Assembly (NCBI GenBank): GCA_021513715.1
Contig: CP084167.1
Location: 1,536,001 to 1,600,000 of the forward strand
Direction: 5' to 3'
From: Candidatus Heimdallarchaeum endolithica
GTDB taxonomy: Archaea; Asgardarchaeota; Heimdallarchaeia; Heimdallarchaeales; Heimdallarchaeaceae
DNA length: 64,000 nucleotides
The position numbers and the translations under genes were made by a program. This document shows positions 6,309 to 12,640 of the stretch, piece after piece. The notes beneath the pieces are model-generated. The model did not search any database and had not been told where the DNA came from. It saw only the letters and a list, made by a program, of their open reading frames with translations. Each line of letters opens with the position of its first letter. Position 1 is the first letter of the stretch.

Positions 6309-7340
6309 TCACAGATAAAAATCTAAAGTTTTTTGTTTTGTTAGCGGATAAGCATTAAAACCTCTTCTCTTTAGTTCAGAAGCAAAACAGAGAGAAGAAC
6401 CATAGATTGTATATACTTTTCTGGGATTACATTTTTCTACTATACCAAGTAATTCATTAAAATCAGCATGGTCACTAACAATAATTCCGTGATCAATTGA
6501 CATTTGAAACTTATAGCTGGAAAAATTACACCAACCTGAAAAGGCAAATAATCTCGCATTATATTTTGATTTTAGATTTCGAAGAAACTCATTTCTTCCA
6601 CTAATTAAAGGAGAAAATAAAATCCAGGGTTTCTTATTTTCCAATAAATTATTTTCTCTCATACATTTATATGAATTATAATTAAAACTCAGATTATGGT
6701 TAACAGATTCAAGAATTTTCTGTATCTTTAGGTTAGATTCATGCAAAATAAGATTATCAGAGAGACTTGAAAAATTGTCGTATAATATTTGAGCTTTGCC
6801 ATAAGGATACCCCATCAAAACTACAGGTATATTTTTTAACAAATAGTCTTCAATAAGGTCTTTTGCTCTTTTAATCTCTTCTTCAAATGGTGGAAATTGG
6901 TACTTAGGCTCTCCAAAAGTAGATTCAATGATTAATGTATCACATTTTTTTGGTCGAAAGGGTTCAATTAGTTTTCCTTTTTTTTGAATAGAAACATCAC
7001 CAGTATAAATTACTCTTTTACCGTAAGAATCAATTTGTAAAGCAGTAGAACCTAATGTATGTCCGCTTGAAACTTGACTAAATTTTACTTCTTCGAACTC
7101 CAAATTTCGAACAAAATTATTTGTTTTTAGTTTTGGAAAAAAGTGTTTTATTAAAGCTTCAGTGTAATGACTACTAAGAATAGTTGTATTTTCTAAAACA
7201 TGTCTAGTTGTATGATCAGAGTGGGCATGACTTACAAATAAAAGATCTGTTTTATTTTTCCTTGTAACGTCACAAGCAATAGACCAACCTCTATCAATTA
7301 ATTGAATACCAGAATTCTTTATGATTTTCATTTCAATCAA
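6309..7340 (-). CDS. Metallo-beta-lactamase / beta-CASP-type nuclease
   Basis: SHAHSDH, GHTLGS, YTGD, ESTFG, GKAQ, SDHAD. Confidence 0.85.
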   Translation of the reverse strand: MIEMKIIKNSGIQLIDRGWSIACDVTRKNKTDLLFVSHAHSDHTTRHVLENTTILSSHYTEALIKHFFPKLKTNNFVRNLEFEEVKFSQVSSGHTLGSTALQIDSYGKRVIYTGDVSIQKKGKLIEPFRPKKCDTLIIESTFGEPKYQFPPFEEEIKRAKDLIEDYLLKNIPVVLMGYPYGKAQILYDNFSSLSDNLILHESNLKIQKILESVNHNLSFNYNSYKCMRENNLLENKKPWILFSPLISGRNEFLRNLKSKYNARLFAFSGWCNFSSYKFQMSIDHGIIVSDHADFNELLGIVEKCNPRKVYTIYGSSLCFASELKRRGFNAYPLTKQKTLDFYL

Positions 7341-7374: not shown

Positions 7375-8025
7375 TTATTGAATGGGTATGGAAACCACCA
7401 TTATGTCTTTCTCATCTACTTCGTCTTTGACTATTTTCTTAATAACATCTTTTGCTAATGTTTCCATCTCTTCAATAGTTAAATCTTCTTTATAGTTTTC
7501 TTTTAGAATAGATATAGCTTCAGTATCTCCTTCTCCTATAGCTTTTGCTTTTACAGAGATTACTCCACCACCAGGATCTACATAATACAAAGATGATCCT
7601 GTGTCATCTACGCCTCCTATCAGCAATCCTACTCCAAAAGGTCTTACTCCTCCTTGTTGTGTATAAAGTTGGCAGTAATCCCCTATTTTTGTAGATAATC
7701 CTTTAATGTCTGTTGGAAGGTCATAGGTCATTCTAAATATTTGAGCTTCTAGTCTTGCTCTTGAAATTAACACTCTTCCATCTGCTGCAACACCAGCAAA
7801 AGTCGCATACACGTTGTCATCTATTTTATGTACTTTAGCATCTGGTTCGTTTAAATCGACAACACGTAGCAATCCAGCTAGAACCACACCATTTTTGCTT
7901 TTTATTCCTACTGCAATGCTTCCTCGTCTTACTGATTCTCTTGCATATTCTACTTGTATTAATCGTCCTTCTGGACTATACATAATTGAAGTTCTATCAT
8001 ATCCCATTGATTGTGGACCTAACAT
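7375..8025 (-). CDS. psmA: Proteasome alpha subunit
   Basis: GYDR...SPEGRLIQVEYA N-terminal signature; RPFGVGLLIGG. Confidence 0.92.
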   Translation of the reverse strand: MLGPQSMGYDRTSIMYSPEGRLIQVEYARESVRRGSIAVGIKSKNGVVLAGLLRVVDLNEPDAKVHKIDDNVYATFAGVAADGRVLISRARLEAQIFRMTYDLPTDIKGLSTKIGDYCQLYTQQGGVRPFGVGLLIGGVDDTGSSLYYVDPGGGVISVKAKAIGEGDTEAISILKENYKEDLTIEEMETLAKDVIKKIVKDEVDEKDIMVVSIPIQ

Positions 8026-8026
8026 T

Positions 8027-8689
8027 TTATAACTCCTCCAATATTTTCTTTATTTCTTCTTCAGTTAACCATCGGATTCCGTCTTTGTTTACAACCAATG
8101 CATCCATACCATTACCTGTTGCTGTATCTCTACTAATTGAAGTAGAGAGTGCTCTTAATCCTAGTTTAATAGCTTCCTTTTCTGTAAGATCTTCTTTCCA
8201 GAAAGCTTCTAATACACCATAAGTGAAGAGTGAACCAGAACCTGTAGAAGCGTAGTCTTCATCAATTATTGCTCCTGATGCATCCAAATTGTAAACATGG
8301 GGACCATATTTATCTAGACCACACACTAACATTGCAACATAGAAAGGCATGTAAGATCTAAATTGTTCATATAATACAGAAGCAAGAAGATTACCTGCCA
8401 TTTTTGTTGTAGGAGGATAACCTCTGTTTAGTTCATATAGATTTAAGTTAGCTTTAGTAAGATTAACTAAATATTGGGCATCAGCTACTAAACCAGCGAT
8501 CGTTGCTACTGTATAATCATTTAATTGATGAAGCTTTTTAGCTCTTTTTGAAGCAACGAAGGTTCCTGCAGAAGCTCGTCTATCAGTTGCAACAACAACA
8601 CCATCCTTAAATCTAAGAGCAACAGTTGTTGTCCCTTTCATTGGATTTTCAAATGGATTTTGTTGTCCATAATTATTCATCATATTCAT
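8027..8689 (-). CDS. psmB: Proteasome beta subunit
   Basis: Propeptide then G/TTTV catalytic Thr; ATDRRAS; STGSGS; SRD. Confidence 0.95.
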   Translation of the reverse strand: MNMMNNYGQQNPFENPMKGTTTVALRFKDGVVVATDRRASAGTFVASKRAKKLHQLNDYTVATIAGLVADAQYLVNLTKANLNLYELNRGYPPTTKMAGNLLASVLYEQFRSYMPFYVAMLVCGLDKYGPHVYNLDASGAIIDEDYASTGSGSLFTYGVLEAFWKEDLTEKEAIKLGLRALSTSISRDTATGNGMDALVVNKDGIRWLTEEEIKKILEEL

Positions 8690-8869: not shown

Positions 8870-9565
8870 ATGAATGCAATGAATCTGCATAGAGACTATT
8901 TTGAGAAATTCGAATATAGTGAGCCTAACTTAGGAAACTTACCATATGACCTTTTTTACTCAAATGAATATAATTACATCACTCTTCCTGAAGTGCAAGT
9001 TCTCTTTGCTTTAACAGATTCAAGTACTTCATATACCTTTTCAGGTTTAAGAAAGAGAACTCAACTACATCAATATAAAATCTCTAAATCTTTAAAGAGG
9101 TTACAAGAACGGGACTTAATAGATAAGGAACAAGATGGAACATATTCTTTAACAGCTAAAGGAGAAGAATTTTCACGAAAACTTATTAAAGAACTATTAA
9201 AAAGAAAAGACATTTCTTATCCAAAATATAATAATTTTCAAATTCAAAGAGTAAAATTGTTTGCAAAAAGAAATTTAGACCAAAAATACATAAAAAAGAA
9301 ACTTTATGGACGTTGGTTCGGTGATTTCAGATTTCTGTACGCTAAAGAAGATGAAAAAAGTTTGAAACTTTGTTGGGAAGATACAGAAAATTGGCAAATA
9401 ATTTTAGAGAACACCATATATAACCAATTGTACATTCAATTTAATCTCAGAGATTACGAAAAAACAAAAATTGATAATTTTACTAATTGGTTATCCAAAG
9501 AACTTCTCACAGAGGTTGATATTCCATCTTATTCACTAAACCAAAAATCTGAAGTTTACAATTAA
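8870..9565 (+). CDS. Winged-helix (MarR/ArsR-like) DNA-binding protein with C-terminal domain
   Basis: FSGLRKRTQLHQYKISKSLKRLQERDLIDK...YSLTAKG. Confidence 0.65.
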   Translation: MNAMNLHRDYFEKFEYSEPNLGNLPYDLFYSNEYNYITLPEVQVLFALTDSSTSYTFSGLRKRTQLHQYKISKSLKRLQERDLIDKEQDGTYSLTAKGEEFSRKLIKELLKRKDISYPKYNNFQIQRVKLFAKRNLDQKYIKKKLYGRWFGDFRFLYAKEDEKSLKLCWEDTENWQIILENTIYNQLYIQFNLRDYEKTKIDNFTNWLSKELLTEVDIPSYSLNQKSEVYN

Positions 9566-9598: not shown

Positions 9599-11344
9599 TT
9601 AGTTTTCAAAAACTGAATGCATATCTGAAAGATGGTCTTCTGGTGCCTCTGCAGTGGGGTGTAAAAACACTTCACCATCTAATATTGTAAATGGGATCCT
9701 CCTTTTATCGATCCATGGAGCAATTTCCCTAAATTCCTTAAATAGGTCATTACTCACAATCATTGCTGTTTCTTCTTCTGCAATACGAAGAATAAATTTA
9801 TCTCCATCTACTCTTGCAGGTAACATCTTTATTGCACCTTCTTTTACTAATTGATCCAGTCTCTTTTGATTATCAATCTGATATCGAAGTGCAGCGTCAG
9901 CCACAGTAATTATTTTCTTAAAATTAGACCTACTAAGTTTGTTTATCATTGCTTCAATGTTAGCTAACTTTGGATGTCCAGCAGAATCTTTTTCTTCCCA
10001 AGCAACATTACTACCATCTACAATAACTATATCATAAGGATATGTGGTTTCAGGAAAGATGCGTTCTTGCTCTCCTCTAGTCATTTTTACTAATCCTTTA
10101 ATAATATCTCTTGAAAAATAACCTATTCCTAAAAGTATTGTTATCAAGAGAATAATAATTGTAATATTTTTGTCAAAAGGGTTCAATGGTTCATCATTAG
10201 ATATAATTTGTATATAGAACTCTCCACTAAAATAGAAACTTGTAAACCAATAAATCTCTGGTTGAATTTTCCAAGCAATTTGAATCGAGAGAGTGATACT
10301 TGTATTACCAGCTTCTATAGGTTCATCTTTTAAGATTATATGATGCCCTGAAAAACTAGGAGATATGGCAAATATTTTTCCATTAATTTCAGAGAATGAT
10401 ATGAGAGAGCAAGTAATCTCATGCTCAATGTAAACAACATCAGTTTCGTAATTAGCTATGTCATAAGTAATTAGATATTCCTTGTTTAGCGATGCATTCA
10501 CAGAAAAATGAACATTACTGACTGAAATATTTGGGTAACAGATTATATACAATGGTTCACTTAAAACAATAACAGGATTATCTGGATCATCAAGATTTGT
10601 AAATGAAACTTGATACGAATGTTTTTGATATAAGGGTTCATTTGTAAAAAACCTTATCGTTCCTTTATAACTTTCTCCACTATTTAACATTAGATTCAAA
10701 TATGGAAGATAGATAATTGGACTAGCTTCTGTTCCTTGGCGATCAACTAAGGCTGAGATAGTTACATTAGTAACAGCTGTTCCACCTACATTTACCAACT
10801 GAAAGTCTACTTCAGTAGTTGAATTACGTTTTAAAATAATTTTATTATTGACGAATGTCATTTCTATTTGTCCACTAGGTAGAACCTCAAGGGTAAAAGT
10901 AGCAGTTTGATAAGTAGTTATAACATTTGTACCGTTAACAAAACTTTCGACAGAATAGTTTCCTGTTGGTTGACTATAAAAATCTTTTTTGTTAATTTGA
11001 ACAACATAGTCTAATGAAGAATTAGTTATTATATAGTTATTTTCAATTATTTTTGTAGTTTCATAAGAGATGTTATAAAAAATAGTAGCATCATCGTCTA
11101 CTGGACTACCATTAAGCCAAGACAGGTGGAAAAGTATAACTAAATCGTCAATTCCACGCTTTATTACAGAAGAATTCAGCGATAAGGTAAAATTTACTTC
11201 TGATTTTTCTGAATGATAATAATATCTGGAAATAGGCTCTTGTGATTCAGTTACTTCAGTATTTAACATTGGAGAACGAATAATGAAGCACGAGATTGTG
11301 AGGAACGTAAGAATGGATAGCATGATTAGTAGTTTTTTTTTCAT
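9599..11344 (-). CDS. Single-pass membrane protein: signal peptide, Ig/CARDB-like ectodomain, TM helix, cytoplasmic NYN/Zc3h12a-type PIN RNase domain
   Basis: MKKKLLIMLSIL...; LVNVGG...LNSGES; TM ITIIILLITILLGIGYF; IVDGSNVAW, DAAL, DGDKFIL, IVSNDLFKEF. Confidence 0.8.
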   Translation of the reverse strand: MKKKLLIMLSILTFLTISCFIIRSPMLNTEVTESQEPISRYYYHSEKSEVNFTLSLNSSVIKRGIDDLVILFHLSWLNGSPVDDDATIFYNISYETTKIIENNYIITNSSLDYVVQINKKDFYSQPTGNYSVESFVNGTNVITTYQTATFTLEVLPSGQIEMTFVNNKIILKRNSTTEVDFQLVNVGGTAVTNVTISALVDRQGTEASPIIYLPYLNLMLNSGESYKGTIRFFTNEPLYQKHSYQVSFTNLDDPDNPVIVLSEPLYIICYPNISVSNVHFSVNASLNKEYLITYDIANYETDVVYIEHEITCSLISFSEINGKIFAISPSFSGHHIILKDEPIEAGNTSITLSIQIAWKIQPEIYWFTSFYFSGEFYIQIISNDEPLNPFDKNITIIILLITILLGIGYFSRDIIKGLVKMTRGEQERIFPETTYPYDIVIVDGSNVAWEEKDSAGHPKLANIEAMINKLSRSNFKKIITVADAALRYQIDNQKRLDQLVKEGAIKMLPARVDGDKFILRIAEEETAMIVSNDLFKEFREIAPWIDKRRIPFTILDGEVFLHPTAEAPEDHLSDMHSVFEN

Positions 11345-11417
11345 TTAATGACCTCCAATGCTTTTATTGAAGTAATAATTCCATATAATATATTCACTTA
11401 ATAAGTTTTTATCTTAA

Positions 11418-11738
11418 AGGGTGTGCGGGAATACCCCTGATTCTGTTCGGAAGTCATTTAGATGAAACTTCCTAGCAACATTCATCTATGCGCTTTACCC
11501 GACTTAGAAAGTCCTATTTAAGCTTGCACCACGATGTATGATCGTTTCATCGCTCCCTCTTTACTCCTCAATAACTTCACAGGTCACCCTATGTGCCATA
11601 TCATTGTCAACGTAAAGAGGACGTGTCGTTTCTATTTCAGGGACCACGTTCTCACGTGATGGGTTTGCACCCATATCGTTTTTTAGGTGTCAGGAGGTTC
11701 CTCAGGTTTAACCCGAAAGTTGCTCTCCCGCTCACCCT
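11418..11738 (-). ncRNA. rnpB: Archaeal RNase P RNA
   Basis: Reverse strand: P1 ends GGGUGAGCGGGA / UCCCGCACACCC; GAGGAACCUCCUGA pairing with AACAGAAUCAGGGGUAU (P4); internal GAAAC and GCAAG conserved elements. Confidence 0.9.
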
Positions 11739-11908: not shown

Positions 11909-11986
11909 GGGCCAGTAGTCTAGCTTGGATAAGGCACCTGCCTGCGGAGCAGGGTATCGCAGGTTCAAGTCCTGCCTGGCCCGCCA
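11909..11986 (+). tRNA. tRNA-Arg(GCG), CCA encoded
   Basis: GGGCCAG...CTGGCCC-G-CCA acceptor; anticodon arm CCTGC-CTGCGGA-GCAGG; GGTTCAAGTCC T-arm. Confidence 0.95.
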
Positions 11987-11989
11987 TTT

Positions 11990-12640
11990 TTACAAAAGTG
12001 AATGTTTTGTTTTATAAAAAGGGCTTGTTTTTTTCAAGGGGACCTCCAAAAATGCTTCTGCAAACTCCACTTGTGCTTGTGTACCTCTCATTTTTGTTCT
12101 ATACTTATGAAACTCGATATAGAAATTATTTCCTCCTTTGTCGAGCTGAGAACTATAACATTTCATAGCTTTTTCTTTTACTTCAACAAAATCTGAAATG
12201 TCAACAATTACATGAGGATTCGACAATAGAACAGTCGTTTCAGTGAAGTAAAGCTTAGAAACAACAAATGAGTTTGAATACTGTGTTTCATGTGCTGCCC
12301 ATTCTATTGCCTCTTTAACCATAGAACTTGTTAAACGATGTTCAACGTGATAATCATCATCCATATGGGTCACTATTATTTCAGGACGATAAGTGAGAAT
12401 AAATTCAATAATTTGATTTTTTATTTCTACTTCATTATTTTCTATTTCTTTATAATTTAGGATTATTGCTTTTTTAACGTTCAGAATCTTTGTAGCTTCT
12501 ATGTATTCTTTTCTTCTTACCCCATTTGAAGTTAAACAAAGCGAATACACATCATTTCCCAAAGCGGAATAGCGAGCAATAGTTCCCCCTGTACTAAAAC
12601 TTTCATCATCAGGGTGCGCAAAAATAAAGGCAATGTTCAT
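11990..12640 (-). CDS. PIG-L/LmbE family N-acetylglucosaminyl deacetylase (BshB-like)
   Basis: AHPDDE, RxxE, THxxxDxHxEH, YxSQ, AEAF. Confidence 0.85.
   Translation of the reverse strand: MNIAFIFAHPDDESFSTGGTIARYSALGNDVYSLCLTSNGVRRKEYIEATKILNVKKAIILNYKEIENNEVEIKNQIIEFILTYRPEIIVTHMDDDYHVEHRLTSSMVKEAIEWAAHETQYSNSFVVSKLYFTETTVLLSNPHVIVDISDFVEVKEKAMKCYSSQLDKGGNNFYIEFHKYRTKMRGTQAQVEFAEAFLEVPLKKTSPFYKTKHSLL

Follow-up and report, generated by a model that had tools for sequence, protein, structure and literature searches.

A membrane-spanning Zc3h12a-type NYN protein of Heimdallarchaeales: a candidate surface receptor with a predicted ribonuclease tail

The DNA analysed here is a 64,000-nucleotide stretch of the genome of Candidatus Heimdallarchaeum endolithica (GCA_021513715.1, contig CP084167.1, positions 1,536,001-1,600,000 of the forward strand; hereafter the window, to which the coordinates refer unless another locus is named). 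An open reading frame (ORF) on the minus strand of the window (9599-11344) encodes a protein of 581 amino acids that, judged with high confidence from its sequence and from predicted models, is a type I single-pass membrane glycoprotein with an intact cytoplasmic NYN domain of the Zc3h12a type. A known ribonuclease (RNase) family is found here in an undescribed, receptor-like membrane architecture. To our knowledge, the Zc3h12a-type NYN RNases characterised so far are, without exception, soluble proteins of eukaryotes that regulate mRNA decay and antiviral immunity, and we are aware of no archaeal membrane-anchored RNase that has been described. The interest of the protein lies in the existence of a conserved membrane-spanning form of this family, with a large extracellular domain, in Heimdallarchaeales, the archaeal order nearest to eukaryotes.

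A Kyte-Doolittle scan (window threshold 1.6) detects exactly two hydrophobic segments in the protein, residues 3-27 and 387-415. The AlphaFold2 model of the full protein, built with 46 homologues (mean predicted local distance difference test score, pLDDT, 84.8), consists of an N-terminal helix (residues 2-20), a low-confidence or disordered linker (23-45), three all-beta domains (47-155, 158-262 and 265-381, each with pLDDT above 90), a single long helix (392-422), a short low-confidence linker (low pLDDT at 422-429), a compact alpha/beta domain (439-561) and a disordered acidic tail. In the DNA, all on the minus strand, the predicted signal peptide or signal anchor (residues 1-27, with a KKK n-region and an 18-residue hydrophobic core) corresponds to 11264-11344; a matching hydrophobic segment is found in 43 of the 46 aligned homologues. 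The ectodomain that follows comprises beta-sandwich domain 1 (10880-11206), domain 2 (10559-10873), which is CARDB/ASH-like by its model and a sub-threshold CARDB match, and the membrane-proximal domain 3 (10202-10552). The single predicted transmembrane (TM) helix (residues 392-415; 10100-10171) is matched in all 46 homologues, about 25-30 residues ahead of the DGSN motif of the NYN domain, and is separated from this domain by a basic juxtamembrane linker (residues 416-437; 10034-10099) with a conserved FPE..YP motif (consensus of alignment A1). The Zc3h12a-type NYN (PIN-like) domain occupies residues 438-562 (9659-10033) and is followed by an acidic, disordered extension (residues 563-581 and the stop codon; 9599-9658; isoelectric point 4.2; pLDDT below 50 at 570-581), the length and sequence of which differ among homologues. 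The original prediction, made from the letters of the sequence, had described this order, with a signal peptide, a beta-rich, Ig-like ectodomain, a single TM helix and a PIN-fold tail; the order is supported, with the first segment read as a signal peptide or anchor, and the architecture and topology given here are considered very likely to be correct.

The cytoplasmic placement of the NYN domain assumed in that prediction stands up in the homologues. The 16 residues that precede the TM helix contain, on average over the 46 homologues, 0.35 Lys and Arg, and the 16 that follow it contain 4.0; every one of the 46 sequences has more of these residues after than before. All 13 N-x-S/T sequons of the 581-residue protein lie within residues 51-393 (5.7 expected from composition) and none in the tail (the C-terminal 160 residues). 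Across the homologues, the ectodomains contain 531 sequons against 243 expected (2.2-fold), whereas the tails are depleted, with 16 against 39 (0.41-fold), and eight sequon columns are kept in at least 60% of the sequences. The basic N-terminus with its hydrophobic stretch gives the same orientation whether it is cleaved or not. Taken together, the positive-inside rule, the distribution of sequons and the N-terminus would place the Ig domains outside the cell and, by established rules, the NYN domain in the cytoplasm; the ectodomain is probably N-glycosylated.

The assignment of the tail to the Zc3h12a/N4BP1/KHNYN family, proposed originally from its motifs, is borne out by both profile and fold comparison. 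The Pfam family RNase_Zc3h12a (PF11977) matches residues 438-556 with 58.3 bits (E = 9.5e-16; gathering score 23) over profile positions 3-135 of 154, the scan of the whole genome with PF11977 gives 61.5 bits for the gene, and phmmer matches the tail to the NYN domain of KHNYN (E = 2.6e-4). Because NYN matches were swamped in the Foldseek search with the whole model, the tail was folded and searched on its own (AlphaFold2 pLDDT 89.2, predicted template modelling score 0.82). The best matches in the PDB are ZC3H12C, ZC3H12B, KHNYN and MCPIP1/Regnase-1 (top entries 7ndk, 6sjd, 9s2d, 3v33 and 5h9v; template modelling scores of 0.66-0.71, 19-25% identity, E of about 1e-8), in agreement with the predicted PIN fold; PRORP structures (PRORP1/2) rank just under the Zc3h12 group, and generic PIN proteins (Utp24, FEN) are far weaker. 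The nearest models in the ESM Atlas (template modelling scores of 0.72-0.78) are bacterial PF11977 clusters, namely standalone NYN, NYN-S1, Hsp70-NYN and NYN-IF2_N proteins, and thus the tail appears to belong to the prokaryotic branch of the family.

The acidic motifs quoted in the original prediction are all present in the translation: DGSNVA (residues 443-448), DAAL (483-486), DGDKFI (513-518) and SNDLFKE (531-537). Residues D443, N446, D483, D515, N532, D533 and E537 do not vary among the aligned homologues, as judged both on the 46 full-length sequences and on an alignment of 39 sequences, and the catalytic invariants are also kept in actinobacterial NYN-S1 proteins. Through the alignment with KHNYN, D443, N446, D515, D533 and E537 equate to D141, N144, D226, D244 and D248 of MCPIP1 (residue list in PMC5499597). 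With this set of residues, the tail is predicted, with good probability, to be an active RNase. There is no CCCH zinc finger in the tail, which gives no zf-CCCH match in Pfam, leaves room for only the 19 residues of the acidic extension after position 562 and contains no cysteine (the cysteines of the protein are residues 19, 269 and 312). By its predicted model, the tail is nearest to the prokaryotic PF11977 branch, and together with the lack of the Regnase CCCH finger this weakens a Regnase-type reading.

The family PF11977 consists of two evolutionarily separated groups, and its prokaryotic members, including the bacterial ones, have no known function; a census of PIN-like domains published in 2017 counts 23 archaeal sequences in PF11977, with no mention of a member of the family that spans the membrane (PMC5499597). 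In the literature, no description was found of a transmembrane PF11977 protein or of the Heimdall family, and the only match that ties Asgard archaea to NYN is a soluble methanogen protein. The Heimdall protein shares the PF11977 family, the PIN-like fold and the DGSN, D(K/R)F and SND..(D/E) motifs with Regnase-1/MCPIP1 (ZC3H12A), ZC3H12B-D, KHNYN and N4BP1. These eukaryotic proteins, however, are soluble and carry CCCH, KH, UBA/CUE or other RNA- or ubiquitin-binding domains, all of which the Heimdall protein lacks, whereas the latter has a TM helix, a 340-residue ectodomain, a glycine at the site of MCPIP1 D225 and the extra aspartate D483. With the prokaryotic PF11977 proteins (standalone forms of about 150-170 residues and the actinobacterial NYN-S1, Hsp70-NYN and NYN-IF2_N proteins) it has the invariant residues in common, D483 and the G-D pair among them; the prokaryotic forms seen are cytosolic, with no signal peptide, ectodomain or TM helix, and the Heimdall protein has all three.

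The ectodomain was described in the original prediction as Ig-like, with CARDB named as a profile to search for. The beta-sandwich fold holds, with pLDDT above 90 over residues 47-381, but CARDB is not reached as a Pfam assignment: the score is 14.4 bits with the whole protein and 17.5 bits with domain 2 alone (E = 0.0048), against a threshold of 22.7. Domain 1 alone gives no Pfam match above the cut-off; a match of domain 1 to the tail-fibre family gp37_trimer (16.9-19.4 bits, cut-off 21.7) was taken as chance. The conserved sequon columns of domain 1 are N78, N91, N108, N129 and N137, and in domain 2, little or no variation is seen at N185, G187 and the N193 sequon. Foldseek with the whole model retrieves, at low template modelling scores, only generic tandem arrays of Ig, macroglobulin (MG), integrin-calf and HYDIN/CFAP65 types, and the ESM Atlas feature search of the ectodomain gives scores of 0.82-0.87, below the meaningful level, with CARDB as a weak lead. 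In an exhaustive search with the ectodomain profile, full-length matches are confined to proteins of about 540-620 residues that represent the same RNase-fusion family, so that the complete three-domain ectodomain occurs only joined to an NYN tail. Partial matches (profile positions of about 106-260, mostly domain 2) are tandem repeats of giant proteins, and the four giant proteins that were scanned have strong scores for CARDB, HYDIN_VesB_CFA65-like Ig, ASH, NPCBM_assoc or Bact_surface_Ig-like/Big_3_5. Since repeats are shared with such proteins, the ectodomain appears to be built of common surface-protein Ig modules. The genome of Ca. H. endolithica encodes no paralogue of the ectodomain besides the NYN gene itself.

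The nearest relative of the protein, with 90% identity, is encoded by Candidatus Heimdallarchaeum aukensis and annotated as hypothetical, and about 76 proteins have the same architecture; those with a source label are nearly all from Heimdallarchaeota/Heimdallarchaeaceae, the exceptions being an "Asgard group" record and a partial sequence with the label "Thorarchaeota". Of 301 Asgard genomes scanned, 139 contain the PF11977 domain. In the four families of Heimdallarchaeales it is present in 25 of 28, 10 of 11, 1 of 1 and 3 of 3 genomes, in frames of about 570-650 residues, most of the inspected ones carrying both hydrophobic segments, whereas no beta-sandwich-TM-NYN fusion was seen outside this order in the 301-genome scan, and elsewhere in Asgard archaea the commonest form is a soluble protein of 132-200 residues. 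The original prediction had allowed for the homologues never being fused; the survey instead shows a fusion conserved across four families, a core gene that is near-universal in Heimdallarchaeales and single-copy in the genome studied here. A word-based search for shorter homologues of the tail retrieved 12 proteins, all close relatives and none standalone (divergent standalone Asgard forms lie beyond the reach of this search), several of which are marked partial or lie on very short contigs. A genome of a sister family (G086) contains two paralogous beta-sandwich-TM-NYN genes (L031 and L032, encoding 567 and 588 residues). In a comparison with the orthologue from the same genus, the ratio of nonsynonymous to synonymous substitution rates (dN/dS) is 0.066 in the ectodomain, falls to 0.029 in the TM helix and linker and is lowest, at 0.013, in the NYN domain; averaged over pairs of family members, identity is 31% in the ectodomain and 69% in the NYN domain. 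By these measures, both halves of the protein have a function, and constraint is strongest on the RNase.

Membrane tethering of an NYN domain is also found in another family of Asgard archaea. The protein encoded at locus L011 (2157-4169, minus strand; 670 residues) consists of a signal or anchor segment, a BamB/PQQ-like beta-propeller (E = 8e-76), a TM helix (457-475) and a PF11977 domain (511-651). Its design is the same as that of the Heimdall protein and its ectodomain fold is different; identity between the two NYN domains is 35%, and no alignment is possible over the TM helix and linker. Only three closely related sequence clusters of such propeller-TM-NYN proteins were found, which makes this a narrow lineage whose fusion probably arose independently. 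In the same search, related PQQ propellers were also found fused to Ser/Thr kinases. Six further Asgard loci (L026, L025, L028, L027, L012 and L014) encode other fusions, in which PF11977 is C-terminal to a STAND/AAA NTPase (891 residues), a BrxL-like Lon protease (651), TPR repeats (463), HEAT repeats (522) or an Upf1-like superfamily 1 helicase (1327), or N-terminal, between a helix-hairpin-helix motif and a multi-TM block, in a protein of 782 residues. Some of these fusions look like conflict-system effectors. Given the variety of partners (propeller, STAND, TPR, HEAT, BrxL, helicase), the NYN domain behaves as an effector or output module.

The gene order in the window is rnpB, the NYN gene, a gene for a 231-residue winged helix-turn-helix protein, and the genes for the proteasome beta and alpha subunits. 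The RNase P RNA gene rnpB (11421-11735, minus strand; Rfam RF00373, 179.7 bits) lies directly upstream of the NYN gene on the same strand, as originally noticed; the spacer to the ATG is 76 nucleotides rather than 74. The same arrangement is found in 23 of 26 genomes of the family to which the window belongs, the NYN gene being cut at a contig end in the three exceptions, but in 0 of 11 genomes of three sister families, and it is also missing at the distant loci L005-L007, which have the same fusion. From these counts, the adjacency is a matter of synteny at the level of one family and, at best, argues only weakly for a functional link to RNase P. A GGAGG Shine-Dalgarno-like motif (11352-11356, minus strand, 7 nucleotides upstream of the ATG) and a TATA-like AT-rich stretch (approximately 11382-11393, minus strand, about 40 nucleotides upstream), both read directly from the sequence, indicate that the NYN gene probably has its own expression signals; they suggest translation signals, and possibly transcription signals, apart from those of rnpB.

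The best overall explanation, to which a probability of about 0.5 is given, is that the protein is a surface glycoprotein with a tethered, competent NYN RNase whose activity is set by the ectodomain. Under this hypothesis, three Ig-like (CARDB/ASH-type) beta-sandwich domains would face outward, and the short basic linker would hold a metal-dependent Zc3h12a-type NYN endoribonuclease at the cytoplasmic face of the membrane, where it could cut nearby RNAs, for example, mRNAs on membrane-bound ribosomes. Lateral clustering or a change in conformation of the ectodomain, on an extracellular or cell-envelope cue, would set the activity of the RNase, and the result would be a one-component outside-in receptor with RNA cleavage as its output. 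The architecture, family membership, predicted fold, active-site conservation, purifying selection and phyletic spread are supported by the results of the tools used; the RNase activity, the substrates and the control by the ectodomain are proposed. Taken by itself, cleavage of membrane-proximal RNA under the control of the ectodomain has, at best, an even chance of being correct. The PIN domain of Regnase-1 alone is active in vitro only through concentration-dependent head-to-tail oligomers (PMC4772114), and since oligomers are needed there, lateral clustering of a membrane-tethered NYN domain would be a credible on-switch. A homodimer prediction for two copies of residues 158-581, made with alignment A1, gave a score of 0.00 and was used neither for nor against this mechanism.

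The analogy with IRE1 drawn in the original prediction stands for the layout, that is, a far-side sensor, one TM helix and a cytoplasmic endoribonuclease, and does not extend to the domains: no Pfam match to Pkinase or Ribonuc_2-5A (KEN) was found in the 581-residue protein at E up to 1, so that the likeness is one of layout only. Signal control of the IRE1 kind is plausible. A broader version, under which the protein would be a functional counterpart of IRE1 and of regulated IRE1-dependent decay assembled from unrelated parts, with a clustered ectodomain switching on an RNase that prunes membrane-proximal mRNAs, is put forward only tentatively; the existence of the independent propeller-TM-NYN fusion is the reason for considering this a possible general design principle of Asgard archaea. 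If the ectodomain does control the RNase, the protein would represent a new class of signal transduction with RNA cleavage as output, employing neither a kinase nor a second messenger, as well as a previously unseen mode of archaeal post-transcriptional control.

Several observations weigh against control by the ectodomain or against the competence of the tail. The position equivalent to MCPIP1 D225 is occupied by Gly514, so that four of the five acidic positions of MCPIP1 (D141, D225, D226, D244 and D248) are retained; the tail has no accessory RNA-binding domain (CCCH, KH or S1), which leaves its specificity unaccounted for; and the ectodomain has no recognisable ligand-binding fold but consists of generic Ig-like spacer or adhesion-type domains, a composition as compatible with a structural role as with a sensing one. 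The topology is deduced from sequence rules, and the hypothesis as a whole from sequence comparison and predicted models. Finally, the status of the fusion as a core gene with housekeeping neighbours fits a constitutive enzyme equally well. Under such an alternative, the protein would be a membrane-tethered housekeeping RNase that transmits no signal, comparable to RNase Y, with its N-terminal TM anchor, and RNase E, with its membrane-targeting helix, the bacterial membrane-localised RNases; the ectodomain would then serve in anchoring, in positioning relative to the envelope or in a separate surface or adhesion role. The Heimdall protein resembles these enzymes in having an endoribonuclease at the cytoplasmic face of the membrane, although their catalytic domains are unrelated to NYN and they have no sizeable extracellular domain. 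Single-copy, near-universal presence in the order, a neighbourhood that includes rnpB, a tRNA gene and both proteasome genes, very low dN/dS over the whole gene and a generic CARDB/ASH-like Ig ectodomain typical of surface or adhesin proteins all agree with a constitutive enzyme. However, three extracellular domains of 340 residues in total that are under purifying selection and exclusive to the NYN tail go far beyond the needs of an anchor, in a second lineage the same RNase is linked, via a TM helix, to a PQQ propeller of the sensor type, and an unregulated membrane RNase with no specificity domain would probably be harmful. On balance, constitutive activity is considered less likely than control by the ectodomain, of which it is the main competitor; even so, a constitutive enzyme of this kind would bear on the site of mRNA decay in archaea.

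The remaining alternatives are markedly less probable than constitutive activity. The original prediction had named antiviral defence and abortive infection among the possible roles, in which the ectodomain would detect virus attachment or envelope damage and unleash indiscriminate RNA cleavage. The fusion, in other Asgard genomes, of the same NYN domain to modules of the conflict-system type (STAND/AAA NTPase, BrxL-like Lon protease and helicase), the much faster divergence of the ectodomain than of the tail and the action of MCPIP1, KHNYN and N4BP1 on viral RNA (PMC5499597) are all compatible with defence, but the gene is single-copy, is present in most genomes of the two main families (25 of 28 and 10 of 11) and is held in stable synteny with housekeeping genes outside any variable island; purifying selection is strong, the ectodomain dN/dS of 0.066 being no sign of an arms race, and the protein models of PADLOC-DB 2.0 contain no family that matches the 581-residue protein at E up to 0.01. 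A defence role is, accordingly, very unlikely. An even lower probability is attached to a nuclease linked to RNase P or tRNA processing, in which an NYN domain from the PIN-like group of PRORP would aid or back up the adjacent RNase P RNA. The position of rnpB 76 nucleotides upstream on the same strand, kept in the 23 genomes down to about 40% protein identity, and the place of PRORP1/2 just below the Zc3h12 group in Foldseek would fit such a nuclease, as would a weak Pfam match to PRORP (PF16953). The score of the latter is, however, 17.5 bits against a required 39.1, and the protein has no pentatricopeptide repeat (PPR) match and no zinc-binding domain, so that identity with PRORP was rejected and the match reflects only common ancestry within the PIN group; in addition, the adjacency is lost in the sister families and at L005-L007, the NYN gene has a Shine-Dalgarno-like motif and a TATA-like stretch of its own, and it is not obvious what a glycosylated ectodomain and a membrane tether would do in tRNA 5' maturation. 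Equally improbable is a tail that is no working cytoplasmic RNase but an RNA- or protein-binding pseudo-enzyme, a DNA nuclease or a domain of inverted topology. The glycine at the D225 position and the lack of published biochemistry for prokaryotic PF11977 members (PMC5499597) leave room for these possibilities, but all the remaining catalytic positions are invariant and under very strong purifying selection, the same glycine is found across the prokaryotic branch together with the extra invariant aspartate D483, and the positive-inside pattern in 46 of 46 homologues and the scarcity of sequons in the tails speak against inversion.

Several features of the surroundings of the NYN gene were noted in addition. 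The 231-residue protein (8870-9565, plus strand) carries a MarR_2/HTH_27 winged helix (E = 6e-7) in its N-terminal part, and its C-terminal half is uncharacterised. Its gene is a conserved neighbour of the NYN gene, the product being 43% identical to the counterpart at locus L002; in the window it is inverted and convergent with the NYN gene, whereas the two genes are co-directional at L002 and L004. On the other side of rnpB, a tRNA gene (11909-11983, plus strand), which flanks rnpB at L002 as well, separates it from a gene for a PIG-L (BshB-like) deacetylase (11990-12640). The genes for the proteasome alpha and beta subunits (7375-8689, minus strand) lie just downstream of the NYN gene; psmA, which encodes the alpha subunit, occupies this downstream position in 23 genomes of the family, and it is also found near one of the two TM-NYN paralogues of G086 (contig C183) and at L007, in differing arrangements. 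Directly downstream of the proteasome genes, an ORF of 343 codons (6309-7340, minus strand) encodes a protein with the metallo-beta-lactamase-type motif HAHSDH, which, judging by this motif, may be an RNA-metabolising nuclease of the metallo-beta-lactamase fold.

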